NCBI GenBank assembly: GCA_044225365.1
Contig: JBGAIQ010000002.1
Coordinates: 116,451 to 180,450, forward strand
Origin: Planctomycetota bacterium
Lineage (GTDB): Bacteria; Planctomycetota; B15-G4; JADJEK01
Direction of reading: 5' to 3'
Length of the DNA: 64,000 bases
Shown here one piece after another: positions 56-54,434 of this stretch. A program made the translations under genes and the position numbers. The notes below the pieces were generated by a model. It was not told the origin of the DNA and searched no databases. It was given only the letters and a program-made list of their open reading frames with translations. Position 1 is the stretch's first letter. Each line of letters opens with the position of its first letter.

Positions 56-3000
56 TCAGTCGATGTAGAGGAACTCGTTCAGATTCATGATCGTGAGCGC
101 GAGCGCGGCCATGGCGTGCTGTGCGCTGTCCACGCGCGGGAGCGCCGCCTCGATCGTCGTTTTGCCGGAGGACATTGCGAGTCGCTCGAGCGTGATCCCA
201 CTGCCGTAGGTCTTGATCCCGACGCGTCCGCTCCGCGTGGCCGGCGTTCCGCCGTCGTTTCCCTCGAGGGAGATCGGAGGCTGACCTTCCTGCGAGATCA
301 CGGCGTGCACCTTGGCGCCCGCGAGACTCACGACGAGCTCGACCGGAACGAGTGTGCGGATCGCCGCCGCTCGTCGCGCGAGTTCCGTCGCGACGCCGTT
401 GTCGTGCGACAGCAGTATGAGGGCGCCCGGCGAACTCGCGCTCGGCGGTTCGATGCGGACCTCGATCCCGGCAGCGACGTCGCCGTCCACCTTGCCGCGT
501 ACGAGCAACCCGCAGTACGGCGAGTCCTCGTGCATTTCGAAACGGGCGGCGACCTCGCCGTCGACGAGTTCGTGATCCTTCCACAGCGCGCACGGACCTT
601 CGAGGCGATCGACCTCGTACGTCACGTTGTAGTCGTTGCCGAATCGGCCCTTCAGCACTTCGAACGTGTCGGCCGGTGCGCGCAGGATGCGATCGCCCGC
701 GAGGATCGCGAGGAATCCGCGTTCGAGCCGCGGGGGGACGAGTGACTCGATCACGGTCGATGGCGCGCGCGTCGCGACGGCCGCCGTCTCACGCTCCACG
801 AAAGCTCGCGCCGCGGTGAGTTCGCTTGGAGTCGGCTTGCGCGAGAGAGCCCGTTCGAAGACGAGTTCGATCGCGCGGGACGTGTCGCCCTTCGCATCGG
901 CGAGCACGCGGGAGGCGAACGCTTCGGACTGGCGGCCCGCGAAGTCGCCATTCAAGAGTTGCAGCGCTTGCGTCGGGACGGTCGTCACCGCGCGTCGTCC
1001 TTCGGGGAGCGCGGAGTTCGGACAGTCGAAGGTCTCGAGCAGGGGCGTGAGCAGGTTGCGCTTCACGAACGCGTAGAGCGAGCGGCGCTGCGTCTCCGCC
1101 GCGGGCGAGATCCTCATTCCTTCGCCCGGCCGCGACAGTCCGGCGAGCGCTTCGCGGGGCAAGGGCTCGAAGAAGCTCGGGCCGCCGCGAGTCGTCACGA
1201 GACTGCCGCTCGCCGCGAGGATCGAATCGCGCAGCGTCTCCGCCTCGAGGCGATGGCGATTCTGGCGCCACAGCAGTTGATTGCCGGGATCGACGAGGCT
1301 CGCTCGCTTCGCGACGGCATCGTCGACGGTCGAATCCTGACGATACGTGGACGAGAGCAGGATCTCGCGATGCAGCCACTTCAGGCTCTCACCGTGCTTC
1401 ACGAACTCGCTCGCGAGATGATCGAGGAGTTCGGGATTCGTGGGGGGCGCGCCGGCCTTGCCGAAGTCGTTCGGCGTCGGGACGATTCCCTCGCCGAAAT
1501 GATGCTGCCACACGCGATTCACGATCACGCGGGCGGTGAGCGGATTCGAGGAGTTCGCGATCCACTCGGCGAGCACGCGGCGGCGACCGCTCGATTCGGC
1601 GTGCGCGGAGCGGGTGATCTTGGAGGGCATCGCCGCGTCGTCGCTCGGCGCGAGCGCCCGCGGGAAGTGCGGCGCGACCTCTTCAGCGGGTGACGAGGCC
1701 TGGCCGCGAACGAGCAGATGCGTGACGGGCGGGGGAGTCGTGTTCTCGCGGGCGCAGAGCGCCCAGTCGAGATGACCCTGGAACGACTCGCGAATCGTGA
1801 GCCGCTCGCGTTGGAGGCCGAGCAATTGGATCGCGCGAGGATGGTCCTTCGAATCGAGGAGATTGAGCGCGCGCTGTTCGTCGATGCCGCTCTTGACCGC
1901 ATCGATGATCTCGCGCTGTTTCGCGTTGCGGTCCTTCTCCGGGGTGTCCCACGCGTCCTTCAATCGCTTCGCCGTCTTCGCCCGCTCCTCGATCACGAGC
2001 GTCCGCGCTCGTTCGACGAGGTCGGCGGCCTCGCTCTCGATCGCTTTCTTGCGCTCCTCGCGTTCGGCATTCCACTTCTTCATCGCCGCGGGATCGGAGC
2101 TCAGCATCGCGAGCGTCGGCGAGTCGGGCGCGAATTTGCCATCGTCGTAGCGCCGGAGGTTGCGGAGGAACGCGAGCAGTCCGTAGTAGTCGGTCTGCGG
2201 GATCGGATCGAACTTGTGATCGTGACAACGCGCGCATCCGATCGTCGTCCCGAGGAAGCCTTCGCCGATCGTGCGCACCATGTCGTCGAGTTCGTCGAAC
2301 TCGGCTTGGTCCATGTCGTCCGGCTCGCTGTCCCACGGGCCAAGGCGGTAGATCCCGGTCGCCACGATCGACTCTTTCGTCACCGCGTCGAGTTCGTCGC
2401 CCGCGAGCTGCTCGAGCACGAAGCGATCCCACGGCTTGTCCTGATTGAACGAGTCGACGACGTAGTCGCGATACCGCCAGGCGAAGGGCTTCTCCTGATC
2501 GCGTTCGTACCCCGAGGTCTCGGCATACCGCACCACGTCGAGCCAATGCCGCGCCCAGCGCTCGCCGTACTCCGGTCGCGAGAGGAGATCGTCGACGAGG
2601 CGCGCGTAGGCGTCGGGCGCCGGATCCAGAACGAAGCGATCGATCTCCTCTGCCGAGGGCGGCAGACCGATGAGGTCGAAGTAGACGCGACGCGCGAGCG
2701 TCGCCTTTGCCGCCGGCTCTGCCAGCATGAGCCCCTTCGCTTCGAGCTTGGCGAGGACGAAGGCGTCGAGCGGCTTCACGACGCGATCTTCGGCCTTCAC
2801 GGTTGGAACGGCCGGCGCCACGACCGGGCGGTATGCCCACCATTCGCGGCCCTTCGCGATGTCGATCTCCGATTCGCTCGACGTGTTGGATGCGGTGTTC
2901 GAAGCGAGTGCCGTCGGCCACGGTGCGCCCAGTTCGATCCATTGTTCGATCACTGCGATCTCGTCGGCCGCGAGCTGCTGCTTCGGCGGCATCTCGAGCG

Positions 3001-3325
3001 ACTCGTCGGTCCACTTCAGCGCCTTCACGAGCAGGCTCTTCGCCGGTTCGAACGGGACGACGACCGCTCCGGAATCGCCACCCTTCTTCAGAGAATCGGC
3101 ATCGGCGAATCGCAATCCGCCCTTCGGCCGCGCGACGTTCGGGCCGTGACACTTGAAGCAATGCGTGTCGAGGAGTGGGAGCACGCTCTTCGTGAACAAG
3201 GCTTCGCCGGTGTCGTCCGTCGCGCGCGGGCCGCAAAGCGCGACCGATGCAACGCCCCCCGCGGCGAGAGCGAATGTCGAGAGGGCGCTCCGCGCGATGG
3301 CGGACCGAATCGAACGAGGGGGCAT
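56..3325 (-). CDS. Planctomycete-type PSCyt/PSD1 (DUF1549/DUF1553) cytochrome-c-domain protein
   Basis: There is a 1,130-aa ORF. Trimmed to the Met at 3325 it gives MPPRS followed by a hydrophobic signal peptide. A CFKCHGP motif (CxxCH heme-binding site) lies near the N-terminus. The length and composition match the family that is abundant in Planctomycetes. Confidence 0.8.
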   Translation of the reverse strand: MPPRSIRSAIARSALSTFALAAGGVASVALCGPRATDDTGEALFTKSVLPLLDTHCFKCHGPNVARPKGGLRFADADSLKKGGDSGAVVVPFEPAKSLLVKALKWTDESLEMPPKQQLAADEIAVIEQWIELGAPWPTALASNTASNTSSESEIDIAKGREWWAYRPVVAPAVPTVKAEDRVVKPLDAFVLAKLEAKGLMLAEPAAKATLARRVYFDLIGLPPSAEEIDRFVLDPAPDAYARLVDDLLSRPEYGERWARHWLDVVRYAETSGYERDQEKPFAWRYRDYVVDSFNQDKPWDRFVLEQLAGDELDAVTKESIVATGIYRLGPWDSEPDDMDQAEFDELDDMVRTIGEGFLGTTIGCARCHDHKFDPIPQTDYYGLLAFLRNLRRYDDGKFAPDSPTLAMLSSDPAAMKKWNAEREERKKAIESEAADLVERARTLVIEERAKTAKRLKDAWDTPEKDRNAKQREIIDAVKSGIDEQRALNLLDSKDHPRAIQLLGLQRERLTIRESFQGHLDWALCARENTTPPPVTHLLVRGQASSPAEEVAPHFPRALAPSDDAAMPSKITRSAHAESSGRRRVLAEWIANSSNPLTARVIVNRVWQHHFGEGIVPTPNDFGKAGAPPTNPELLDHLASEFVKHGESLKWLHREILLSSTYRQDSTVDDAVAKRASLVDPGNQLLWRQNRHRLEAETLRDSILAASGSLVTTRGGPSFFEPLPREALAGLSRPGEGMRISPAAETQRRSLYAFVKRNLLTPLLETFDCPNSALPEGRRAVTTVPTQALQLLNGDFAGRQSEAFASRVLADAKGDTSRAIELVFERALSRKPTPSELTAARAFVERETAAVATRAPSTVIESLVPPRLERGFLAILAGDRILRAPADTFEVLKGRFGNDYNVTYEVDRLEGPCALWKDHELVDGEVAARFEMHEDSPYCGLLVRGKVDGDVAAGIEVRIEPPSASSPGALILLSHDNGVATELARRAAAIRTLVPVELVVSLAGAKVHAVISQEGQPPISLEGNDGGTPATRSGRVGIKTYGSGITLERLAMSSGKTTIEAALPRVDSAQHAMAALALTIMNLNEFLYID

Positions 3326-4999: not shown

Positions 5000-5494
5000 T
5001 CAAGAGATCCACCACATGTGGTCCTCGGTCACGATCCAAACTCCACTCCGTCGCTCGACCGTATACGTGTTTCCCGATGCGCTCAACCCGCCCTCGAAAT
5101 ATCCGCCCTCGACCTCGACCTTGTCGTCACCGATCCATTTGATTTCTCCCACGTTGAAAGACAGGCCCTTTGCGCCATCTATCTTGTGATGAATGCGAGT
5201 GTCGAGGGGGGACTGCGCGCCTGCGGAGCCCGGCAACACACGCGGCGAGATGTCTTTGAATCTCGCGAGAAACTGCGGGGTCGGGTCTACCTTACCGCCG
5301 TCGATCGAGATGAAGTAGTATCGCACTTTATTCTGCGCCGCAGATGCGTTGTGCTCGAATTCGTAGCGGAAGACTGCTTCGCGGACGTCATCGACCTCGG
5401 CGCGTCGCCGTTCTTCCTGTCGCGCCTCCGGACTCATGCATGCGAACGCAAGGAAAGCGCAGGCCAGAAACGCGACAGCAGCGCGAACGGACAT
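5000..5494 (-). CDS. Small lipoprotein (hypothetical), within the lower-GC island
   Basis: The ATG at 5494 begins MSVRAAVAFLACAFLAFACMS, a signal peptide with a lipobox. The product is 164 aa. Local GC is clearly lower than in flanking DNA. Confidence 0.5.
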   Translation of the reverse strand: MSVRAAVAFLACAFLAFACMSPEARQEERRRAEVDDVREAVFRYEFEHNASAAQNKVRYYFISIDGGKVDPTPQFLARFKDISPRVLPGSAGAQSPLDTRIHHKIDGAKGLSFNVGEIKWIGDDKVEVEGGYFEGGLSASGNTYTVERRSGVWIVTEDHMWWIS

Positions 5495-6133
5495 GAGAGA
5501 TCCTTTCGATTGAGCGCACGGCGAACGCGGAGACAGAGAAGCGACTGAACGCGCTAAGGGTGTTACGTGGTCGCGGCCAAGACGGGTTCCAAGCGTTGAG
5601 CATCCTACCTCCCGTCCATCGTATTCTTCCGGCCGAGCACTGTGCTCCCCTCGGAGAAAGAGATGCGCCTTCGGGGCCGAGGCGGCGAGAAGGACGAGAT
5701 CGGCGACGTCGGTGCCGAGGATATCGACTGCGTGCCGGCGTCGGTGATCGTGCGCGAGTACGTGCGACCGCCGTACGCGAGCCGGATCGCCCCCCTCGAT
5801 CGCCCCGATTCGGCTGGGGGGCTGGGGGGCGACCGCGTAGACCATCCTCAGGGCGGCTCGCAACCGCTAGTAACCAACAGGGGACTGTTCGGATCCCATC
5901 CGACTCGGGGTGGGGCGGGCGTGACCACGAGCAGGGTGGATTCGCGTGATGGGCGTGGCCCGGCGGTACGCCGGGAACAGTCGCTCGAGCCGATGTTCGC
6001 CGTTGCTTCGATCCCGTCTCGCCTGATAAAAGCACAGTCCGAATGTGACTCCGCAATGAACTCGGCCTGCAAAATTCCCGCATTTGTGGCGGATGTCGAG
6101 CTTCTCTTTTCGAGCACCCGTAGGCAGCCGCCC

Positions 6134-7606
6134 ATGAACAACCGCGTCGTTCGCAGTTCGGTCTTCATCGCGTTCTTCACGACCGCCTTCGGTTCGTCTA
6201 TCGGCGTTGCTCCATCCGCCCACGCCCAGTCGATGAAAACTCGCGTTGGCAACATCGAACTCGAACGGGGTGTCCCAACCGAACAAAGCGCGCATGAGCT
6301 GTTCGACAGCATGGATTTCCAGCGTGCCTGCCAGGCGTATCTTTGGGCGCTGCCCGCTGTCGGGTTCGAGTATGTACTCCGTGAACAAAGGAATGAGCTC
6401 GGCGCAAGAAACGGGGACGTCGTCGTTTGCAAGGGCTACCGAGACGTGAGTCGGTTCCTCACGCCGAATGTCACCACGCCTTATATCATCGGCTTCATGG
6501 ATCTGGCGGAAAGCGGACCGATGATGCTGCAAGTTCCCGAAGGTGCGATCGCCGGATCGGCGATGGACTTCTGGCAGCGCCCAATCACCGACTTCGGCAT
6601 GACGGGTCCGGATCAGGGCAAAGGAGGGCTGTATCTCCTGGTCGGGCCGGGGCAGTCGCTGCCTTCGCAGTTGCCCCCGGCGGCAATCGTCGTTCGATCG
6701 CCGACGTTCGGCGTTGGCTTCTTCTACCGCGCGCTCGACACCGATCCGGCGAAGGCCGAAGCGATGGAAAAGGCCATCCGCACCTACCCGTGGTCGCAGC
6801 GTGACAATCCGCGCGAGACACAACACCTCAAGCCCAACGCGCCGCAGACAGCGACCTTGCCTCGTGGTATGGAGTACTGGGAACAGTTGGCTGCCGTGAT
6901 CAACCGCGAACCCGTGGATGACCGTGATCGGTTCTTCGTGGCGATGCTCAGACCGTTGGGTATCGAACGCGGAAAGGAATTCAAGCCAGACGAGCGGCAG
7001 CGCCAATTATTGAAGGAAGGTGCTCAGGTTGGCGAGTTGATGGCGATGGCGAATTCCTTCGACAAGCGATTCCCTGGTTCGCGGTATCAACCGAATGCTC
7101 ACTGGGATTACGTCATCATGGCGGATCCGGCGCAGGACCTTCCGGACTACAGCCAGCTCGATGAGCGCGGGGCCTACTTCTACGAAGCTGTTGCCCTGTC
7201 GAAGGGGATGGTCACGAAGACACCAGGGGTCGGTCAGGCTTATCTAGGAAGTTATCGCGACAAGAACGGGCACGCCTTCGATGGAGGACTGTCCTACCGG
7301 CTCCGCGTGCCACCGCATCCGCCCGCCAAGCAGTTCTGGTCGGTGACGGTCTATGACACGCAGACGCGCGGCATCATTCAGAACACGCAACAGATCGCGG
7401 ATCGTTCTTCCCGGCAGGATCTGGTCACGAATGCGGATGGATCCGTAGATATATACTTTGGGCCAACGGCGCCCGCGGGCCTCGAAAAGAACTGGATTCC
7501 CACCGTTCCCGGCGGATCGTGGTTCGCCTACTTTCGTCTCTACGCCCCGTTGGAGCCGTATTTCGACCGAACCTGGCCGCTTCCGGACATCGAACTCGTG
7601 AAATGA
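6134..7606 (+). CDS. Secreted DUF1254/DUF1214-family protein (hypothetical)
   Basis: The ATG at 6134 begins MNNRVVRSSVFIAFFTTAFGSSIGVAPSAHAQ, a signal peptide. The C-terminal half carries an FWSVTVYD-type motif that I recall as typical of DUF1214. This assignment is from memory, not a search. Confidence 0.6.
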   Translation: MNNRVVRSSVFIAFFTTAFGSSIGVAPSAHAQSMKTRVGNIELERGVPTEQSAHELFDSMDFQRACQAYLWALPAVGFEYVLREQRNELGARNGDVVVCKGYRDVSRFLTPNVTTPYIIGFMDLAESGPMMLQVPEGAIAGSAMDFWQRPITDFGMTGPDQGKGGLYLLVGPGQSLPSQLPPAAIVVRSPTFGVGFFYRALDTDPAKAEAMEKAIRTYPWSQRDNPRETQHLKPNAPQTATLPRGMEYWEQLAAVINREPVDDRDRFFVAMLRPLGIERGKEFKPDERQRQLLKEGAQVGELMAMANSFDKRFPGSRYQPNAHWDYVIMADPAQDLPDYSQLDERGAYFYEAVALSKGMVTKTPGVGQAYLGSYRDKNGHAFDGGLSYRLRVPPHPPAKQFWSVTVYDTQTRGIIQNTQQIADRSSRQDLVTNADGSVDIYFGPTAPAGLEKNWIPTVPGGSWFAYFRLYAPLEPYFDRTWPLPDIELVK

Positions 7607-7631
7607 CACCCGTATTATTCTCATACAAACC

Positions 7632-8948
7632 ATGAAGACTATCTACCTCCGATTCGTTGCCGCATTCGCGTTGATCCTGACGGCGTTTCCTGCGGCCCGC
7701 GCGCAGGTTCCTGACAAGCAGACCTTGACCGACGCCTACGTCTATTTGCTCGGCCGCGCCATCGCCATCCGGCAGGAGCAGACGGACCTCAAGGAGCCGG
7801 GCATCGACTACAACGTCATCAAGTACAACCCAGCGGGGTCCGCGGATTTCGTGAACCCGAATCTCGACGTCGCCTACCTCGAAGCGTGGATCGCCGTCGA
7901 CGACAACACGCCGGCGGTGCTCGAGGTGCCGGAAGTGAAGGGGCGCTATTACACGGCGCAGATTCTCGACGAGTGGGGCGAGGTCATCACGAACATCAAC
8001 GAGCGCAATTATCCGACGCATCCGTTCGGTAGGTTTGCATTCGTCGCGCCCGGCTCCACGGCAACCGTCCCTTCGGACGCCGCCCGCATCGAATTGCACT
8101 CGCGCAAGGCCAAGTTGCTCGGGCGAGTGGAGCTGAAGACGGACCCTACCGGCGCGATGGCCTTGCAGAAGCAGTTCAAACTCACACCCCTCGGCAAGCC
8201 GGTCATCCAGCCCGCCGCTCCGATGGCGTCGTTCGGGAACGAGAAACTGATTGGGGTGGAGCTGTTCGACAACGTCGATGCAGTGTTGGCCAGCGCGCTG
8301 GATGTGTCGCCGATCGCAGCTCAGATGCAGGCCAAGGCACGAGACATCGGCCGGCAAGTCAAGGATGCTGGGAAGCGCCAGGCGATCGACAAGATGATCA
8401 AGGATGACGTAGTCCCTCAGTTCCTCCGGTACGCCGTCACGAAATCGGGTGCGTTCCAGAACAACTGGCTCGCGACACTAGGCACAGGCAACTATGGCGC
8501 CGACTACTGGAAGCGCAGTTCGGCGAACCTGGTCGGACTCTGGGCGAACGCCAACGACGAAGTGATCTACTTCGTCGCCACGCGGGATGCCGACGGTCAA
8601 CCGCTCAATGGCGCGAACGACTATGTGCTCGAGTTCTCTCCCGCGAACCGGCCAGACGCCGTGGTGAATGCCTACTGGTCGGTGATCCTCGTGGATGTGC
8701 CCGACTACCGGGTCGTGAAGAATCCGCTGAACCGTTTCAACTTCAACAGCGATTCAGGCCTGAAGAGCGAGGCCGACGGTTCGCTGAAGATCCTCTTTTC
8801 TTCGAAGCCGAATTCGGCTGTGCCGGAATCCAACTGGTTGCCGTCCGCGCCCGCCAAGGGATTCTCCCTCACGCTGCGAACCTACGTCCCCAAAGACCTC
8901 GTCAAGCGTGGTGAGTGGTTCCCCCCGGCAATCAAACGGCTGAACTGA
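7632..8948 (+). CDS. Secreted DUF1254/DUF1214-family protein (paralogue of 6134..7606)
   Basis: The ATG at 7632 begins with signal peptide MKTIYLRFVAAFALILTAFPAARAQ. It has the same overall architecture as the preceding gene, including a YWSVILVD motif, and sits in tandem with it. Confidence 0.6.
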   Translation: MKTIYLRFVAAFALILTAFPAARAQVPDKQTLTDAYVYLLGRAIAIRQEQTDLKEPGIDYNVIKYNPAGSADFVNPNLDVAYLEAWIAVDDNTPAVLEVPEVKGRYYTAQILDEWGEVITNINERNYPTHPFGRFAFVAPGSTATVPSDAARIELHSRKAKLLGRVELKTDPTGAMALQKQFKLTPLGKPVIQPAAPMASFGNEKLIGVELFDNVDAVLASALDVSPIAAQMQAKARDIGRQVKDAGKRQAIDKMIKDDVVPQFLRYAVTKSGAFQNNWLATLGTGNYGADYWKRSSANLVGLWANANDEVIYFVATRDADGQPLNGANDYVLEFSPANRPDAVVNAYWSVILVDVPDYRVVKNPLNRFNFNSDSGLKSEADGSLKILFSSKPNSAVPESNWLPSAPAKGFSLTLRTYVPKDLVKRGEWFPPAIKRLN

Positions 8949-48249: not shown

Positions 48250-49170
48250 ATGAGACCGCTCTCGTACCTGGCGGGACTCTCGGCACTGGTGATCACGGGC
48301 CTCGCGCTCGCGGCGCCGCCGAAGCCGAAGATCAAGCCTACGGTGGAGTTCGCCCACACGTGGGAAGCCGCCGTCGCCGAAGCGAAGATGCTGAACCTTC
48401 CGCTCGTGGTGCACAATCACGGGTTCTACTGAGGCCCGTGCTGGGGCATGCATTCTGCCGTGATGCAGAATGACGATTACATCAAGTTCGCGAACGACAA
48501 CACGGTCGAGGTCCTGGCCCTTGGCAGCCTCGACACCGCCGTACAGAAGAACGAAAAGGCCGATCAGGCCAAGATCGCGCGCTACAAGGCGACCGTCAAC
48601 GGCAAGGAAGTCGAGCTGATGGTCGAGTGGCCGAATCTCACGTACGAGGAGATCATCGCCCTCAACCAGAGTCCGGCAGGCCAGTACAACAAGTCCGGAG
48701 GCATCCCCTACACGTCGATCGTGAATCCGTGGGATCTGAAGGAGATGTGGAAGCAGCTCGGCGGAACCGGCGCCTCCACGATCATCGCCGCGGCGACCGA
48801 CGCCAAGAAGCAGCTCGAGAAGGAGCACGGCAAGGGTCTCTCCCGCAAGGATCTTCGCGCGTACAACAAGGCGGACGCCGAAGCGACCAAGCTCACGAAC
48901 GACGGTGAGTTCAGCAAGGCGATCCAGGCCTACGATCCATTCAGCAAGTCCTCGGCGCAATGGCCTCAGAACATGAAGACCCGCCTCGATGCTGCGCGCA
49001 ACGCGGTCATCGAAGCGGCGACTTCCAAGCTCGAAGAGATCGAGTCGAAGGCCGGCACCGATCCGGTCGGCGCCAAGAAGGATCTCGACAAGCTGATGTT
49101 GAAGCTCGGCAAGACCGGGCTCGAGCCCAAGGCGAAGGAACTCGCCCAGAAGCTCGCGACGGGCGGCTGA
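48250..49170 (+). CDS. Candidate selenoprotein: a secreted thioredoxin-fold (Thioredoxin_7-like) protein with a U-G-P-C redox motif and an in-frame TGA at 48430..48432
   Basis: The track ORFs 48199..48432 and 48448..49170 are in the same frame, separated only by a TGA. AGGAGA (SD) precedes the ATG at 48250, which is followed by signal peptide MRPLSYLAGLSALVITGLALAA. The read-through translation is ...LPLVVHNHGFY-U-GPCWGMHSAVMQNDDYIKFANDNTVEVLAL.... This aligns with LPVMADFTGSDWCHWC...KKEVFDTDEFKKWAADHVILLEL of the CxxC paralogue at 14938..15912, with Sec in place of the first Cys. Confidence 0.55.
48451..48472 (+). promoter_or_regulatory. bSECIS-like hairpin downstream of the in-frame UGA
   Basis: CATTCTGC-CGTGAT-GCAGAATG is a perfect 8-bp stem with a 6-nt loop containing GU. 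The stem begins 19 nt and the loop 27 nt after the UGA. This falls within the 16-37-nt window described for bacterial SECIS elements. Confidence 0.45.
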
Positions 49171-49209
49171 CGACTCGAGTTCGACTCGATCGAGGCGCCT
49201 CCTCGCCAG

Positions 49210-49255
49210 CGACACGACCCGACGTGCGACAACGCACGTCGGGTCGTGTCGTTCC
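49210..49255 (+). terminator. Strong GC-rich hairpin (19-bp perfect stem, ACAA loop) 40 nt after the stop at 49170. It is terminator-like.
   Basis: The left arm is CGACACGACCCGACGTGCG, the loop is ACAA, the right arm is CGCACGTCGGGTCGTGTCG, and it is followed by TTCC. There is no U-tract, which is common in high-GC genomes. Confidence 0.5.
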
Positions 49256-49635
49256 ATGCGCGGGACACGGAGAGCGAAATCGAACCACGAACCGGCGCGA
49301 AGCAAGAACTCTGCCCGGAAAAGTCCTTTGTTCATCGTCGATTTTTTGGCTACGTGCCCGGACATTCCACCGTAACCAGTGCGCCGATCATTGAAGTTGC
49401 GTTACGAGCGACGACAGTGAGAGGTAGAGATGCAGCGAGCCGGATGCGGTCGTGCGGCGGAAACCCGAACGCTGGCGATCACGGAAGACTCGCTGTTCCT
49501 GGAAGGACGGGCCAGCGGGCGCGAGCTCGGTGGCCCTTTTCCGTTGCAGGTGCGTCGTCGCGAGTGTCGCAGCGATTCGGCTCGGCGCGATTCGACGGCT
49601 TTCATCCCGATCCGCGTTCGAATACGCTGCAGGGA

Positions 49636-50367
49636 ATGGTGACCTTTGCCCTGATCACGCTCCTCGTCACGTTCCTAGGCGGATGCCTGCCGCTCGTGAA
49701 GGACTGGAGCCATCGGCAACTCCACGCCGTACTCGCGCTCGCGACGGGCGTCTTCCTCGGCGCCGTATTCCTCCACTTACTCCCCGAGATCAGCGCGAAC
49801 GAGAGCGGCCAGCGGGCGATCTCGCCGCGCACCTTGTGGTTGCTGACGTTGGTCTCGACGCTCGCCGTGTACCTGCTCGAAGCGCTCGTCTTCCGGTCGC
49901 ACGACCACGACGAGGCGCACCGCCATCGGGCGGTCGGATACTCGGCGCTCGTCGGGCTCTCCGTCCATTCGTTCACCGAGGGCATTGCGTTCTGCGTGTT
50001 CGCAGCGGACGTGCGCAGCGCGACGCCGTTCTTCCTCTCGACCCTCGGCCACAAGCTGCTCGACGGCTTCTCGCTCGCGTCGGTGTTTCGACTCGGGGAC
50101 ATGGGCCGGAAACAGGTGATCTTCTGGATGATCGCGTTCGCATCGCTCACACCGGTCGGCATGCTGCTGGGAGAGCGACTCCTTCCCTGCCTCTCACCGA
50201 CGGCGTTTGCCGTCGTGTCGGCGCTCGCCGCCGGTACATTCCTGTTCGTGAGCCTCTGTGAACTGCTGCCGGAAGTCTTCCATCACCGCGAGGACAGCCT
50301 CGTCAAGGTCGGTCTTCTGCTGCTCGGTATCGGCTCCTTCATGGCCCTGCACGAGGTGAGCGGATGA
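49636..50367 (+). CDS. ZIP-family divalent metal transporter (ZupT-like)
   Basis: The ATG at 49636 begins a 243-aa product with 8 hydrophobic helices. A His-rich loop (HDHDEAHRH) is present. HSFTEGIA and HKLLDGF match ZIP metal-binding helices. Confidence 0.75.
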   Translation: MVTFALITLLVTFLGGCLPLVKDWSHRQLHAVLALATGVFLGAVFLHLLPEISANESGQRAISPRTLWLLTLVSTLAVYLLEALVFRSHDHDEAHRHRAVGYSALVGLSVHSFTEGIAFCVFAADVRSATPFFLSTLGHKLLDGFSLASVFRLGDMGRKQVIFWMIAFASLTPVGMLLGERLLPCLSPTAFAVVSALAAGTFLFVSLCELLPEVFHHREDSLVKVGLLLLGIGSFMALHEVSG

Positions 50368-52538
50368 TCCAGTTCTTCCAGGACTGGGGCAGCGCGGTGA
50401 TCTCGATGATCCTGGAAGCGGGACCTTTCCTGCTGCTCGGACTCTTCGTCGCCGGCCTGCTGAAGGCATTGCTGCCAGCCGCGGCGATCACGAAGCACCT
50501 CGGTGGGAACGACCTTCGCTCGGTCGCTCTCGCGACCCTGATCGGCGCGCCGCTGCCCCTCTGTTCGTGCTCGGTGATCCCGACGGCGGTCGAGCTCCGC
50601 AAGAAGGGCGCGAGCAAGGGCGCCACGACCGCATTCCTCATCTCCACGCCGGAGACGGGGGTCGACTCGATCGGTGTCACGTGGGCGCTGATCGATCCGC
50701 TGATGACGCTCGCGCGGCCACTCGCGGCGATCGTGACCGCGTTCGGTGCCGGCGCGATCGTGAACTTCCTCGAACGCCGCGGGTGGCTGAAGGACGTGTC
50801 GACGGATTCCGTGGCTCCGGCGTCGGATTGTTGCGACGACACGGCGAGCTGCGCGGCGCCCGTCCTCGACGAGCATGGCCACGGCGACGCCCACGGACAC
50901 GACCACGGTCACGACCATGAGCACGCGCGCGCGGAGACGGCTGCGCCGGCGCGGCGCTCGGTGCTCGGCGTGCTTCGCGAAGCCGTCGGCTATGGCCTCG
51001 GTCCGCTGCTCGAGGACCTGACCCCGTGGTTCGTCCTCGGATTCCTGCTCTCCGGACTCATCACGGTCCTCGTGCCGGAGAACTTCTTCGGCGACGTGAT
51101 CCCTCCGGGCCTTTGGGCGATGCTGCTGATGCTCGCTCTCTCGGTGCCGATGTACATCTGCGCGAGCGCGAGCACTCCGGTGGCGGCCGCGCTGATGGCG
51201 AAAGGGCTCGATCCGGGCGCCGCACTCGTCTTCATGCTGGCGGGCCCCGCCACGAACATCGCGACGATCCTCGTCGTCGGTCGCTTCCTCGGATGGCGCT
51301 CGCTCGCCGCCTATCTCGCTTCGATCGTCGCCGGATCGCTGCTGTTCGGGACGTTGCTCGATTTCGCCTACAAGGTCTTCTCGATCGATGTCACGATCCG
51401 GAGCCAGGCGACGGAATCGTCGCAGTTCTCGTACTTCACGATCGCGTGCGGTGTGGTGCTCGTGCTCGGCGTGCTCCGACACGCCTGGCGGACGTCGCTC
51501 CTCTTCACGTTCGAGAGCTGGCTCGCCCGGATCGGTCTCGTTCCTTCTCGAAGCTTCGCTCGCAGCCTCTTCGTCGGTGCGGTCGTCGTCGTTTGGGGCT
51601 CCACGAGCTACTCGGTCGTGCTCCCTGGGCAGACTGGATTCGTCCTGCGCTGGGGTCGCGTCGTGGATCGCCTGGAAGGTCCCGCGACCGTTTGGCACCT
51701 GCCGTATCCGATCAGCCGCTTCGAGGCCGTTTCGACCTCTTCGATCGAGCGCGGAAAGGTCGGCCTCGAGGAGGGGAGCGCCGCGCCGCCGCCGCTGTCG
51801 GCGACGGGGGAGTTCGAGCCGCAGACCGATGACGTCGAATGCGTGACGAGCGACGAGAAGCTGCTGATCGTCACCTACGCGATCCACTACCGGATCGTCG
51901 ACCCGTACGTCGCGCGCTTCCAGGTGCAGGACCTGAAGCGGGTCGTCGAGACCTGTGCGGCGTCGTCGCTCCGGCGCATGGTCGCGCATCATTCGATGGA
52001 TGAACATCTCGTCGATCGACGCGAGCCGCTCGAACTCGAAGCCAAGGGTTACCTCTCCGAGCAGCTCGAAAAGATCGGTTGCGGCGTCGAGGTCCTGGCG
52101 GTGACGTTCGAGTACATGCACGCTCCGCCGCAGGTGCACTATGCGTATCGCGACGTCGCGAGCTCGCTCGAGGACAAGGAGACGTCGATCAAGAACGGCG
52201 TCACTTACAAGCTCGAGCAGATGGCGCAGGCGCGCGCGGACGCCGAGCAGATCGAGCAGAAGGCGCTGGGTGATGGCGCACTCGCGCGTGCCGAGGCGAC
52301 TCGAGTCGTCGCGGGGTTCGAGGCTCTCGCGCCGCTCCATCAGCAGTACGGATCGACCTTCGCTTCGATGCTCGTGATCGAGTCGTGGAAGAAGTCGATC
52401 AAGAACCTGAACGGGGTCGTTCCGCTCGCGCCGAACGTGGCAGTGACGATCGTTCAAAAAGGCTCTGGCGCATCTGCCGCCGTGCAGAGCGATGGCGACG
52501 GCAAGGGGTCCGCGACGCCCTCCGGAAAGGACGACTGA
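50364..52538 (+). CDS. Fusion of a DUF318-type permease (SO_0444-like metal transporter with CSC and His-rich motifs) to a C-terminal SPFH/HflK domain
   Basis: There is an ATGA overlap with the ZIP gene. The N-terminal roughly 400 aa form a permease with LPLCSCSVIP, CCDD and the HGHGDAHGHDHGHDHEH loop. The C-terminal roughly 320 aa have a Band-7/HflK-like fold (VLPGQTGFVLRWGRVV...). Confidence 0.7.
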   Translation: MIQFFQDWGSAVISMILEAGPFLLLGLFVAGLLKALLPAAAITKHLGGNDLRSVALATLIGAPLPLCSCSVIPTAVELRKKGASKGATTAFLISTPETGVDSIGVTWALIDPLMTLARPLAAIVTAFGAGAIVNFLERRGWLKDVSTDSVAPASDCCDDTASCAAPVLDEHGHGDAHGHDHGHDHEHARAETAAPARRSVLGVLREAVGYGLGPLLEDLTPWFVLGFLLSGLITVLVPENFFGDVIPPGLWAMLLMLALSVPMYICASASTPVAAALMAKGLDPGAALVFMLAGPATNIATILVVGRFLGWRSLAAYLASIVAGSLLFGTLLDFAYKVFSIDVTIRSQATESSQFSYFTIACGVVLVLGVLRHAWRTSLLFTFESWLARIGLVPSRSFARSLFVGAVVVVWGSTSYSVVLPGQTGFVLRWGRVVDRLEGPATVWHLPYPISRFEAVSTSSIERGKVGLEEGSAAPPPLSATGEFEPQTDDVECVTSDEKLLIVTYAIHYRIVDPYVARFQVQDLKRVVETCAASSLRRMVAHHSMDEHLVDRREPLELEAKGYLSEQLEKIGCGVEVLAVTFEYMHAPPQVHYAYRDVASSLEDKETSIKNGVTYKLEQMAQARADAEQIEQKALGDGALARAEATRVVAGFEALAPLHQQYGSTFASMLVIESWKKSIKNLNGVVPLAPNVAVTIVQKGSGASAAVQSDGDGKGSATPSGKDD

Positions 52539-53440
52539 TGAAGAGATTCATGCAATGGATCGGCATCCTCGCCGCGATTACGGCGCTGCTCGCTGTTTCG
52601 ACCTTCCAGGTCGGCGAGGGCGAAGTGGCGATCGTGATGCGCTTCGGCGAGGTCCGACCCGAACCCGCGGGACCGGGGCTCCACTTCAAGCTCCCGACGC
52701 CGATCGACACGGTGATGCGCGTCGACACGCGAACCCACATCCTCGATCCCAAGTCCGAGGAGTACCTGACGAAGGACAAGAAGAACATCGTCGTCGACGC
52801 CTTCATGGCATGGCGCGTCTCGAACGTGCAGCAGTACGCGCTGACGTTCCGCTCGTCGCTCGAGGCCGAGACCCGGCTCAATGACGTGCTGCGTTCGGTG
52901 CTGAACGATGTTCTGCCGTCCCAGGAGTTCGCGGCTCTCATCTCTACGAAGGAGGGCGGGCCGTCGCTGAAAGACGTGAACGACGATCTCACGAAGCGCA
53001 CGCACGATCGTGCGATCGACCGTTTCGGTATCGACGTCAAACTCGCCGCGATCAAACGCATCAACTTCCCGGGTCAGAACAAGAATTCGGTGTACTCGCG
53101 GATGGAGGCGGATCGCAAGTCGCTCGCCCGCGGCTTCCGCTCGGAAGGCGAAGAGCAATACACGAAGATCCAATCGCAGACCGACCGCGAGGCCGCGGAG
53201 CTGCGTTCCGACGCGATGCGCAAAGCCGCGACGATCAAGGCGGAGACCGACGCCGAGGTGAAGCGCACTTACGCCGAGGCCGCGGCGAAGGACCCGGAGT
53301 TGTGGAATCTGCTCCAGCAGCTCGACCTCGGCGCAGCGGCCTTCGGCGACAAGACGACGATCGTGCTGCCGAGCGATTCGCCACTGCTCCTCCCGTTCGA
53401 AGCGCCCAAGGCGTCGAAACCCGGCAAGACGGGAGACTGA
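52538..53440 (+). CDS. hflC: HflC-like SPFH protein (FtsH protease modulator)
   Basis: There is an ATGA overlap with the previous gene. It has one N-terminal TM helix, then VGEGEVAIVMRFGEV...LHFKLP, which is typical of HflC, and a coiled-coil C-terminus. Confidence 0.75.
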   Translation: MKRFMQWIGILAAITALLAVSTFQVGEGEVAIVMRFGEVRPEPAGPGLHFKLPTPIDTVMRVDTRTHILDPKSEEYLTKDKKNIVVDAFMAWRVSNVQQYALTFRSSLEAETRLNDVLRSVLNDVLPSQEFAALISTKEGGPSLKDVNDDLTKRTHDRAIDRFGIDVKLAAIKRINFPGQNKNSVYSRMEADRKSLARGFRSEGEEQYTKIQSQTDREAAELRSDAMRKAATIKAETDAEVKRTYAEAAAKDPELWNLLQQLDLGAAAFGDKTTIVLPSDSPLLLPFEAPKASKPGKTGD

Positions 53441-53444
53441 GCCG

Positions 53445-54434
53445 ATGGCGGAGCAGAACGTGGTCGAAAGAACGAATACGGGCGCGGCCATCCTCCGAGG
53501 AGTGACGATGCTGTTCGCGCTGGCGTTCGGCTCCGCCGCGTTGTGGTCCTCGACCTATGTCGTGAAGCCGAACGAAGCCGGCGTGATCCTCGCGTTCGGC
53601 AAGGTCACGAGTGTCGCCCCGCCCGGCATGCACATGACGCTGCCGTGGCCGTTCGGCGACATGATCCGAGTGAACACGAGTTCCGTCGACCGCATCTCCG
53701 TCGGATTCAGGATCCTCGACCGCGAGAGGGGTCTGCAGCCGACCGAAGACATGGTGCAGTGGCTGACCGGCGACACCAACATCGTCGAGCTGCAGGCCGT
53801 CGTGCTCTACACGATCCAGGACCCGAGGAAGTTCCTGTTCGAGATCAGCGATTCCGGCGAAGAGGGGTGGCTGCCGCTTCCCGAGCCGCAGCGCACCGTC
53901 GTGCGTCGCGCGGCCGACGCGGTGCTCACTCGTCGCATCGCGAGGATGTCGATCGACGAACTGCTCCTCGAAGGCAAGGTGGAGCTGCAGACCTCCGCGG
54001 TCGACGAGATCCAGTCGATGCTCGACATGCTCGACGCCGGCATCCACGTCTCCGCGGTGCAGATCCAATCCGTCGCTCCGCCGAAGATCGTGATCGAGAC
54101 GTTCAACGACGTGCAGAGCGCTCGCTCCGATCGCGAGCGCCGCATCTCCGAGGCCGACGGCTACAAGCTCGACACGATCCCGAAAGCGCGCGGCATCGCG
54201 AACTCGCTCGAGCAGGAAGCCGAGACCTATCGCACCGAGCAACTGAATCGCGCGAAGGGCGTGCTCGCGAACTTCGACAAGCTGCGCGACGAGGTGAGCC
54301 GCAATCGCGACGTCGTCATGCGCCAGCTCTGGATCGACACGATGCAGAAGATCCTGAAGAAGGCGCGGATCATCCAGGTGCCCGCGGGCGCGCCGCAATC
54401 GCCGGCACAGCGCCTGTTCATCGAGGCGTCCTGA
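53445..54434 (+). CDS. hflK: HflK-like SPFH protein
   Basis: It has one TM helix, then VVKPNEAGVILAFGKV..PG.H...PWP, the HflK-type N-terminus of the SPFH domain. Confidence 0.7.
   Translation: MAEQNVVERTNTGAAILRGVTMLFALAFGSAALWSSTYVVKPNEAGVILAFGKVTSVAPPGMHMTLPWPFGDMIRVNTSSVDRISVGFRILDRERGLQPTEDMVQWLTGDTNIVELQAVVLYTIQDPRKFLFEISDSGEEGWLPLPEPQRTVVRRAADAVLTRRIARMSIDELLLEGKVELQTSAVDEIQSMLDMLDAGIHVSAVQIQSVAPPKIVIETFNDVQSARSDRERRISEADGYKLDTIPKARGIANSLEQEAETYRTEQLNRAKGVLANFDKLRDEVSRNRDVVMRQLWIDTMQKILKKARIIQVPAGAPQSPAQRLFIEAS

Follow-up and report, generated by a model that had tools for sequence, protein, structure and literature searches.

A Planctomycetota operon encoding an SO_0444-type permease fused to an HflK-type SPFH domain, a candidate metal-transport unit with its own scaffold

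HflK and HflC of Escherichia coli, which enclose FtsH (7vhp, 7wi3, 9cz2), are the nearest solved relatives of the SPFH proteins described here. SO_0444 of Shewanella oneidensis (NF033936; PF03773; ArsP family of TCDB) is a permease of about 350 aa that stands alone and is paired with a ZntR-like regulator; mutant fitness and complementation showed that the cells require it to grow when stressed by Zn or Cu (PMC3219624). In Mycobacterium tuberculosis, PacL1 brings CtpC together in 'metal efflux platforms'; it occurs in high-molecular-weight complexes and in foci, the latter independent of flotillin, and stabilises the pump (PMC9374683). Stomatin is an SPFH oligomer that binds and modulates membrane transport proteins such as ASIC3 and aquaporin 1 (PMC3433786) and has been solved in complex with the latter (PDB 9zd2). 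The only SPFH trio linked to a metal transporter that was found in the literature is PA2439-PA2437 (PaFlo5-7) of Pseudomonas aeruginosa; in the available portions of the published accounts its HflK-family, HflC and HflC-family genes share one predicted operon with the P1B-type metal ATPase gene hmtA (PA2435), and the triple mutant has mild phenotypes only, in assays reported without metal stress.

Layout of the operon and comparison with described systems

The window, the whole stretch of 64 kb that was analysed, contains the following features of the operon and its leader.

49210-49251, no strand assigned: perfect 19-bp inverted repeat with a 4-nt loop (repeat search)
49636-50367, + strand: ZIP-family metal transporter gene, 243 aa (Pfam Zip 106.4 bits, cut-off 35.1)
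50364-52538, + strand: fusion gene, 724 aa, encoding an SO_0444-type permease, a linker, an anchor helix and an HflK-type SPFH domain with a long helix
52538-53440, + strand: HflC-like partner, 300 aa, one N-terminal anchor helix (TIGR01932, 161.4 bits)
53445-54434, + strand: free HflK-like partner, 329 aa, one N-terminal anchor helix (TIGR01933, 193.1 bits)

As in E. coli, the HflK-type component (here the fused half; the fourth gene is of the same type) precedes the HflC-type one (the third gene), and a single N-terminal anchor helix stands ahead of the SPFH domain. Unlike in E. coli, the N-terminal part of the HflK subunit is an entire multi-helix metal transporter, a further HflK paralogue usually accompanies it as a free protein, and the flanks consist of the ZIP gene and unrelated ORFs instead of the hfq-hflX context. 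The permease half shares with SO_0444 a vicinal Cys motif, a Cys/His-rich central loop and regulator neighbours, which are ArsR/SmtB-type genes at some of the related loci, but it is extended by the linker, the anchor helix and a 320-aa SPFH module and is followed by two SPFH partner genes. The closest functional concept is that of PacL1 and CtpC, where a dedicated membrane scaffold is likewise encoded in the operon of a heavy-metal exporter; PacL1, however, is a small, unfused single-helix protein of Glu/Ala repeats that has no SPFH domain and no sequence relation to the present proteins, and domain calls assigned none of the four genes to the PacL type. Stomatin also brings an SPFH oligomer to a membrane transport protein, although its association is non-covalent, its SPFH domain cytoplasmic and its ring homo-oligomeric, and metal transport is not involved. 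The Pseudomonas operon resembles the present one in combining three SPFH genes with a metal transporter and differs in gene order, in its regulation by Zur and induction by zinc starvation and, as far as the portions of the literature found describe it, in containing no fusion.

The four genes at 49636-54434 on the forward strand are tightly coupled and form one operon, as the preliminary description had proposed. The stop codon of the ZIP gene (TGA) overlaps the ATG of the fusion gene as ATGA, the stop of the fusion gene and the start of the HflC-like gene overlap by one base as TGATG, and a 4-nt spacer separates the HflC-like gene from the free HflK-like gene, an arrangement that amounts to translational coupling across the operon. 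An alternative HflC-like start at 52535 was rejected in favour of 52538, which gives the 300-aa product and the one-base overlap. The free HflK-like gene is the last of the operon, a convergent ORF beginning 7 nt past its stop. At the other end, the operon is probably delimited by the 19-bp hairpin, which sits 40 nt past the stop of an upstream 240-aa ORF; the terminator scan leaves this hairpin uncalled because it lacks a T run.

A binding site for a metal-responsive regulator had been suggested for the leader, and a link to ftsH for the locus; neither was found. The leader contains no Rfam match, no promoter-like site and no Zur-like box, its sole motif being the hairpin, and 40 upstream regions of related loci have neither a palindrome nor a Zur-like box in common. 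No regulator gene adjoins the operon within the window, which contains no SPFH gene besides the operon's own and no ftsH; ftsH is likewise absent within about 8 kb of all 85 related loci inspected. The want of an adjoining regulator gene, and of any leader motif besides the hairpin, counts against the metal-transport unit proposed below.

The fused protein

The segments of the 724-aa protein are as follows.

50400-51476, + strand: permease domain, residues 13-371 (NF033936, ArsP_1)
50562-50573, + strand: CSCS motif (residues 67-70), where the first helix pair is broken
50826-50924, + strand: Cys/His-rich central loop with DCCDD (residues 155-159) and HGHGDAHGHDHGHDHEH (residues 171-187)
51153-51173, + strand: YICASAS (residues 264-270), where the second helix pair is broken
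51477-51563, + strand: Arg-rich linker, residues 372-400, read as cytoplasmic
51564-51623, + strand: anchor helix SLFVGAVVVVWGSTSYSVVL (residues 401-420), counterpart of the one membrane helix of HflK
51615-52409, + strand: HflK-type SPFH domain and long helix, residues 418-682

The N-terminal half matches NF033936 (SO_0444 family Cu/Zn efflux transporter) at 392.5 bits against a cut-off of 300, over residues 13-371 and profile positions 2-348 of 351, and Pfam ArsP_1 at 150 bits, so that its earlier assignment to the SO_0444/ArsP_1 permeases is borne out; the CSC, CCDD and metal-binding loop noticed at the same time are present as the CSCS motif and the two elements of the central loop. In alignments of 82 fused homologues C67, S68, C69 and S70 are invariant, and CSCS is likely to be a metal site. 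Y264, C266 and A267 are invariant in the same set, and YICASAS is the second-repeat counterpart of CSCS. The central loop differs in length and composition between homologues (family mean 6.6 His and 2 Cys). The AlphaFold2 model of the whole protein has a mean pLDDT of 83.5, with values below 50 at residues 153-191, and contains short paired helices at 51-61/68-80 and 250-260/267-279; these may be read as two re-entrant hairpins with the CSCS and YxCA motifs at their tips, and the modelled permease resembles elevator-type transporters.

Residues 418-610 match Band_7 at 59 bits (cut-off 23.6). The fused half has an SPFH fold followed by a long helix, its model superposes on the full resolved E. 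coli HflK chain, and a neighbour-joining tree places the fused SPFH domains nearer HflK than HflC, in agreement with the HflK-type identity first ascribed to this half. Over residues 418-682 it matches TIGR01933 (hflK) at 98.6 bits, under the equivalog cut-off of 159.4, a divergence that counts against the metal-transport unit proposed below.

In the model a helix at 396-413 leads into the SPFH strands. The loop before the anchor is rich in K/R across the permease family (mean 4.6 K/R against 1.6 D/E), the N-terminal tail is acidic, and certain homologues have an extra signal-anchor helix at the N-terminus (MPWRRHG...). P1B-ATPases and CDF transporters, the partners in the sister fusions described below, have cytoplasmic C-termini in solved structures, and therefore a single added helix would place their SPFH domains outside. 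Charge bias, parity and these sister fusions favour a putative N-in, C-out anchor, with an SPFH domain that would be periplasmic.

That the window comes from one assembly is the sole reason to raise an artefact, and no observation speaks for it. An error of sequencing or assembly that joined separate permease and hflK genes has next to no probability; this reading is refuted by an identical 724-aa protein on an independent Logan read assembly, by the occurrence of both Pfam domains in 119 of the best 120 database relatives (38-54% identity, 642-756 aa), by 54 non-redundant fused loci in species-representative genomes of many phyla, including complete genomes of cultured strains, and by the conservation of the linker and the anchor in homologue alignments. 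The two domains are combined in more than 120 homologues with lengths of 640-760 aa, again in many phyla and including cultured Bradyrhizobium and Saltatorellus. The architecture is not rare but widespread in public data, where it is automatically annotated. The preliminary description knew of no account of it, and full-text literature searches likewise found no description of transporter::HflK fusions.

Partner genes and fusions with other metal transporters

The HflC-like gene passes TIGR01932 (161.4 bits, cut-off 134.4) and matches E. coli HflC (7vhp_G) with E = 3e-35, while the free HflK-like gene passes TIGR01933 (193.1 bits, cut-off 159.4) and matches E. coli HflK with E of about 1e-25. 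In the neighbour-joining tree all partners in the position directly after the fusion fall in the HflC clade, and the gene-3-position partners fall with the fused domains and E. coli HflK in the HflK clade. An HflC-like and then an HflK-like gene follow the fusion in every one of the 43 loci, among the 54, that have at least 2.1 kb downstream, against none of 23 unfused permease loci. The three SPFH genes are therefore strictly co-inherited, and the downstream pair are dedicated paralogues confined to the neighbourhood of the fusion. Thus the HflC and HflK identities originally given to the pair hold, but 'canonical' does not apply, since 43/43 against 0/23 sets these genes apart from housekeeping hflKC.

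Used as the sole query, the SPFH half also retrieves P1B-ATPase::HflK proteins (TIGR01525, 568 bits, with CPC and DKTGT motifs) and CDF::HflK proteins (TIGR01297, 120 bits, with HxxxD motifs). The HflK-type fusion hence recurs with three transporter families, the SO_0444 permeases, the P1B-ATPases and the CDF transporters. P0169, a CDF fusion (186 bits), and P0199, an ATPase fusion (189 bits), reach the TIGR01933 cut-off of 159.4; P0216 (158.7 bits) and P0205 (111.8 bits) miss it. When the ATPase part alone is the query, 116 of the best 120 matches carry Band_7, and an unfused close relative of the fused ATPase has no SPFH neighbour. Two Band_7 genes lie downstream at three loci (L087, L089, L095), and a single one at a verrucomicrobial locus (L094) that has no free HflK gene; a third subunit is therefore not always required.

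A proposed metal-transport unit

The operon is proposed, with a probability of about 0.6, to encode a metal-transport unit with its own scaffold, in which a tethered transporter sits on a periplasmic HflK/HflC-type ring and forms an efflux platform. The permease half would most likely export a soft metal, divalent or monovalent (Zn, Cu or Cd), from the cytoplasm. Its last helix would lead through the Arg-rich cytoplasmic linker and the single anchor helix to the HflK-type SPFH domain in the periplasm, which would co-assemble with the co-translated HflC-like and free HflK-like proteins into an alternating, hetero-oligomeric ring or cage at the outer face of the inner membrane. Several transporters would thereby be gathered within a single bounded patch of membrane, making the ring a built-in 'metal efflux platform'; the free HflK probably takes up places in the ring, so that a bulky transporter need not sit at all of the HflK positions. 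Organisation of a metal transporter by an SPFH scaffold, already put forward for this locus, fits both the 43/43 gene order and the recurrence with P1B-ATPases and CDF transporters.

The same ring might instead serve quality control, as the preliminary description suggested, recruiting or shielding FtsH while the tether governs turnover of the transporter, for example of damaged or surplus pumps. The enclosure of FtsH by E. coli HflK and HflC agrees with such a role, and the NCBIfam equivalog models that the third and fourth genes pass bear the name 'FtsH protease activity modulator'; the fused half, however, has diverged from canonical HflK to below the cut-off, and degradation of a substrate permanently fused to its scaffold would take the scaffold along. 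The absence of ftsH near these loci is weak evidence against this role, since canonical hflKC does not lie beside ftsH in E. coli either. On balance, a role in FtsH-dependent turnover appears improbable.

If the scaffolded transport unit is real, it may belong to an undescribed class of HflK/HflC-type rings, spread over many phyla, whose HflK subunit is fused to a transporter from any of three unrelated families; this wider claim is tentative, its chances falling somewhat short of even. Among SPFH assemblies, such rings would be the first in which the gene itself determines the client, and corralling metal transporters in a bounded membrane patch would be one core job of prokaryotic SPFH cages. 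The rings may also form a semi-enclosed periplasmic space for metal hand-off, and the unfused PA2439-hmtA operon of Pseudomonas would be a split version of the same machine. The recurrence with two other heavy-metal pump families would then point to an undescribed bacterial way of organising metal transport.

The purpose of the operon could also be metal acquisition or allocation, with expression when zinc or another metal is scarce, rather than detoxification in the first place. The ZIP protein would then import metal, and the tethered transporter would release a controlled amount of it on the periplasmic face, within the SPFH ring or beside it, either to supply metalloproteins that have been exported or to balance uptake. 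The promoter of PA2439-PA2438-PA2437-PA2436-hmtA is bound by Zur and its RNA and protein increase on zinc depletion (PMC4542158, PMC8531726, PMC11761036), HmtA is reported to act as an importer (review PMC10393844), and the fused ATPase P0199 has a His-rich N-terminus in place of a CxxC domain, all of which would suit allocation. If homologous, the Pseudomonas operon would argue for acquisition or allocation and not for detoxification; the likeness of its SPFH trio to the present one is, however, drawn from published descriptions, and the lack of a Zur-like box in the leader or shared by the 40 upstream regions does not agree with it. The three transporter families found in the fusions are all classified as exporters, the CDF and P1B families overwhelmingly so, and regulators of the ArsR/SmtB type, which adjoin some related loci, usually de-repress under metal excess. 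Both points speak for efflux and against allocation, as does the experimental tie of SO_0444 to Zn/Cu tolerance (PMC3219624). Allocation is therefore regarded as an unlikely reading, though a less remote one than FtsH-dependent turnover.

The ZIP gene also bears on allocation, which is favoured by its translational coupling to the permease here and by its place directly upstream in 24 of the 54 fused loci and 13 of 25 unfused permease loci. The ZIP linkage noted at first is thus present in this operon (ATGA) but limited to certain lineages and, because unfused permeases show it too, independent of the SPFH fusion. A ZIP gene of identical length (243 aa) is also called on the Logan read assembly (L001) that encodes the identical fusion protein. 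The gene passes the Zip cut-off and scores 49.6 bits against the 252 of the ZupT equivalog NF003243; it is therefore a ZIP-family member (PF02535) but no ZupT orthologue. The ZIP family is known for import, and its co-transcription is odd for a pure efflux unit.

Organisation of the operon and of the fusion protein

The region 49636-54434 of the window is filled by four genes on one strand, the parts of which belong to known families (ZIP, SO_0444, HflC and HflK-type SPFH).

Genes and leader features of the operon
48448-49170: ORF upstream of the operon, 240 aa, of unknown family, without a Pfam or NCBIfam match
49210-49251: perfect inverted repeat of 19 bp around a 4-nt loop, lacking a T-tract, 40 nt past the stop of the upstream ORF
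49636-50367, + strand: ZIP-family gene, 243 aa; Pfam Zip at 106 bits (cut-off 35)
50364-52538, + strand: fusion ORF, 724 aa; its ATG is overlapped by the ZIP stop TGA as ATGA
52538 (start), + strand: HflC-like gene, 300 aa; one-base overlap with the fusion stop (TGATG)
53445-54434, + strand: free HflK-like gene, 329 aa; 4-nt spacer after the HflC-like gene

A convergent ORF starts 7 nt past the stop of the free HflK-like gene. The ZIP protein falls below the ZupT equivalog model and the products of the third and fourth genes exceed the equivalog models for HflC and HflK, respectively. The preliminary description had pointed to the 460-bp leader (49171-49635) as a possible place for a zinc- or copper-responsive regulator site; the search returned only the 19-bp hairpin, with no sigma-70-like promoter, no Rfam family at E <= 1 and no other inverted repeat of note or recognisable signal in the leader. 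None of the palindromic half-sites occurs in more than three loci among the 40 ZIP-led upstream regions compared, and phmmer searches with ArsR/SmtB, ZntR, CueR, Zur and CsoR seeds identified no metal-sensor gene in the window.

The permease half of the fusion (residues 13-371) belongs to the SO_0444 Cu/Zn efflux family (NCBIfam equivalog, 392 bits against 300) and also matches Pfam ArsP_1. The motifs noticed earlier in the sequence were all located, namely CSCS (67-70), DCCDD (155-159) and a His-rich run (171-187). The SPFH half (residues 418-682) matches Band_7 and the hflK model, the latter at 98.6 bits, under the equivalog cut-off of 159; a sequence search of the PDB with this half recovers E. 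coli HflK (E = 1e-14) and not HflC. An AlphaFold2 model built with 82 homologues is confident (mean pLDDT 83.5) and contains two pairs of short helices, 51-61/68-80 and 250-260/267-279, at the breaks of which lie CSCS and YxCA, both invariant.

Three histidines of the fused SPFH domain, H445 in WHLPYPI (window 51693-51713) and H586 and H592 in HAPPQVH (window 52119-52166), are invariant in a 26-sequence alignment; in an alignment of 82 sequences H445 alone stays invariant, with H586 and H592 conserved in at least 90%. E. coli HflK and the free HflK of the window carry no His at the equivalent positions, and of the three only H586 is present in the SPFH domains fused to ATPases and CDF transporters. 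A metal site formed by H445, H586 and H592 was considered and was not retained.

Distribution and gene neighbourhood of the fused permeases

A frameshift or assembly artefact is ruled out as the origin of the 724-aa ORF by the identical protein on an independent Logan read assembly and by homologues carrying both domains, and the fusion first proposed from the sequence is thus genuine. The best 120 relatives, with 38-54% identity, have total lengths of 642-756 aa, and 119 of them contain both Pfam domains. Their automatic names are 'SO_0444 family Cu/Zn efflux transporter' in some and 'HflK' in others, and proteins of this kind are abundant in the databases under such names. A taxonomic scan using one genome per species identified fused copies in Planctomycetota (including the complete genome of Saltatorellus ferox Poly30), Gemmatimonadota, Ca. 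Entotheonella, Myxococcota and other Deltaproteobacteria, Binatia, Rokubacteria, Spirochaetales and Alphaproteobacteria, the last including three cultured Bradyrhizobium species; the plasmids of PLSDB contain no fused copy.

ORFs of all the loci were classed by phmmer, using the proteins of the window as seeds. Among 54 non-redundant fused loci, all 43 with at least 2.1 kb of downstream sequence carry an HflC-like gene followed by an HflK-like gene, a pair that follows the unfused permease in none of 23 loci. It is the SPFH trio that is conserved as a unit, and not the ZIP gene, which lies directly upstream in 24 of the 54 fused loci, chiefly in Planctomycetota and Gemmatimonadota, and upstream of 13 of 25 unfused permeases. 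The linkage with ZIP emphasised in the preliminary description therefore holds for the present operon, where the two genes are coupled, but is a separate and lineage-restricted pairing, since it is found with unfused permeases too. In the latter a putative importer is coupled to a putative exporter with no dependence on an SPFH gene. Planctomycetota loci with ZIP immediately upstream of an unfused SO_0444-type permease are L049, L052, L056, L061, L062, L064, L068-L072, L074 and L081 (L-numbers denote database loci compared with the window).

Instead of ZIP, Bradyrhizobium-type loci have upstream of the fused gene an additional Band_7 gene of the HflC-like kind, for a total of four SPFH genes in the neighbourhood.

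Loci with the extra upstream Band_7 gene
L042, region 5773-7900; also in L035, L036, L043, L050, L055, L059, L065 and L067

In L042, the one locus scanned for this ORF, an FmdA_AmdA (acetamidase/formamidase-like) gene lies between the extra Band_7 gene and the fusion. ArsR/SmtB-type genes adjoin a minority of the loci and are the sole sensor type matched by the ArsR/SmtB, ZntR, CueR, Zur and CsoR seeds. One such gene lies directly upstream of the ZIP gene in a Gemmatimonadota cassette (L004), where an AbiEi/AbiEii toxin-antitoxin pair and an IS66-family fragment (1470-3079) are also found ~4-5 kb upstream of the cassette.

Fusion of the HflK-type domain to other metal transporters

The SPFH half alone, searched against 1.84 billion representative proteins, gave 2963 matches at E <= 1e-3, the best 150 of which comprise 61 permease fusions, 8 CDF::HflK and 7 P-type ATPase::HflK proteins, 69 stand-alone HflK-like proteins and 5 with unassigned N-termini; 138 representatives were classified by phmmer with seed domains. 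The fused ATPases are heavy-metal pumps of the P1B type, which score 526-569 bits with TIGR01525 and contain CPC and DKTGT motifs; the CDF parts carry HxxxD motifs. The HflK-type domain is found at the C-terminus of P1B ATPases (~1000 aa) and CDF transporters (~585 aa).

Loci with other fused transporters
L087, 6001-10791: fused P1B ATPase followed by two Band_7 genes
L089, 6001-9593: fused CDF transporter followed by two Band_7 genes
L095, 4956-10018: fused P1B ATPase followed by two Band_7 genes
L094 (verrucomicrobial), 5001-8934: fusion followed by a single Band_7 gene

With the ATPase part alone as query, Band_7 is also present in 116 of the 120 best matches, so this ATPase clade is almost always fused; no SPFH gene lies beside a close relative that lacks the fusion. 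In a neighbour-joining tree every partner at the HflC-like position, second in order from the fusion, falls in the HflC clade, and the fused domains and third-position partners all group with E. coli HflK. Each of the three operon classes forms a pure clade in a tree restricted to them. A larger tree, with HflK sequences from E. coli and from stand-alone, ATPase-fused and CDF-fused proteins, separates the permease-fused domains into three groups, and its HflK clade is too poorly resolved for the number of fusion events to be read from it.

Predicted assembly and probable functional associations

P1B-ATPases and CDF transporters have cytoplasmic C-termini in the solved structures. In the fused forms the transporter part is followed by an Arg-rich linker and a single hydrophobic helix, so the SPFH domain would lie on the periplasmic side, like that of HflK. 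Permease-family proteins have an acidic N-tail and, ahead of the anchor, a loop with a mean of 4.6 K/R; an N-terminal signal-anchor helix is added in eight homologues. The transporter is most likely tethered to a periplasmic HflK-type domain, which would form a ring of the HflK/HflC type together with the HflC-like protein and the free HflK-like one, holding several transporters within one membrane patch. The E. coli ring has 12 HflK positions, and a multi-helix permease or P-type ATPase on all of them would make a crowded ring; the free HflK copy may relieve this crowding, which would account for the presence of the free HflK-like gene in most cases though not in all.

The preliminary description had proposed an organisation centred on FtsH. 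Motif scans covering the window and every ORF in 85 loci identified no ftsH, but ftsH is not a neighbour of canonical hflKC either; the result neither favours nor contradicts such a role, which is of low probability. An ORF at ~17133 (+ strand) has a HEGGH zinc-protease-like motif and is not FtsH, since it lacks an AAA Walker A motif.

All three fused transporter families are exporter families, and tolerance of Zn and Cu depends on SO_0444 (PMC3219624); the most likely direction is therefore efflux, of Zn, Cu or Cd. A role in acquisition or allocation of metal is possible if an SPFH trio of Pseudomonas is homologous to the present one. ZIP proteins normally import metal and ZIP is here co-translated with the permease, which favours allocation. 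So would, given such homology, the P. aeruginosa locus PA2439-PA2435, in which three SPFH genes (PA2439-PA2437, PaFlo5-7) lie with the P1B-ATPase HmtA, the PA2439 promoter is bound by Zur and the products are elevated on zinc depletion (PMC4542158; PMC8531726; PMC11761036). HmtA is reported as an importer (review PMC10393844). The passages available from the papers naming the PaFlo5-7 genes contain no functional link of these genes to metal transport, and those from an SPFH survey in strain PA14 describe mild phenotypes of the triple mutant in assays without metal stress. The PA2439-hmtA locus may be an unfused counterpart of the fusion operon.

The effect of SPFH rings (HflK/C, stomatin, flotillin, prohibitin) on the membrane proteins they enclose is debated, and weak or indirect interactions are the usual basis on which their clients are assigned. 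In the present case the client has been fused to a putative ring subunit at least three times, with three different heavy-metal transporter families, and dedicated partner subunits adjoin. HflK/C with FtsH and stomatin with channels provide precedents for the assembly principle, as do, without SPFH proteins, the PacL1/CtpC 'metal efflux platforms' (PMC9374683). The fusion of a transporter to an HflK subunit, its dedicated partner genes and its recurrence over three transporter families appear undescribed in the literature searched. Culturable Bradyrhizobium and Saltatorellus strains offer a defined system in which direct tests are feasible, opening questions on ring stoichiometry, the position of the client inside or outside the ring, any involvement of FtsH and the consequences of the ring for transport and for transporter stability. 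Models of bacterial zinc, copper and cadmium homeostasis would gain a scaffold layer from the fusions, which also suggest a function to test for unfused operons of SPFH and metal-transporter genes, such as PA2439-hmtA of Pseudomonas aeruginosa. An anecdotal adjacency of SPFH and metal-efflux genes is also seen in E. coli K-12 (NC_000913.3, 513993-517362), where the SPFH/NfeD pair qmcA-ybbJ lies between cueR (copper regulator) and fetAB (iron exporter), ~3 kb from copA.
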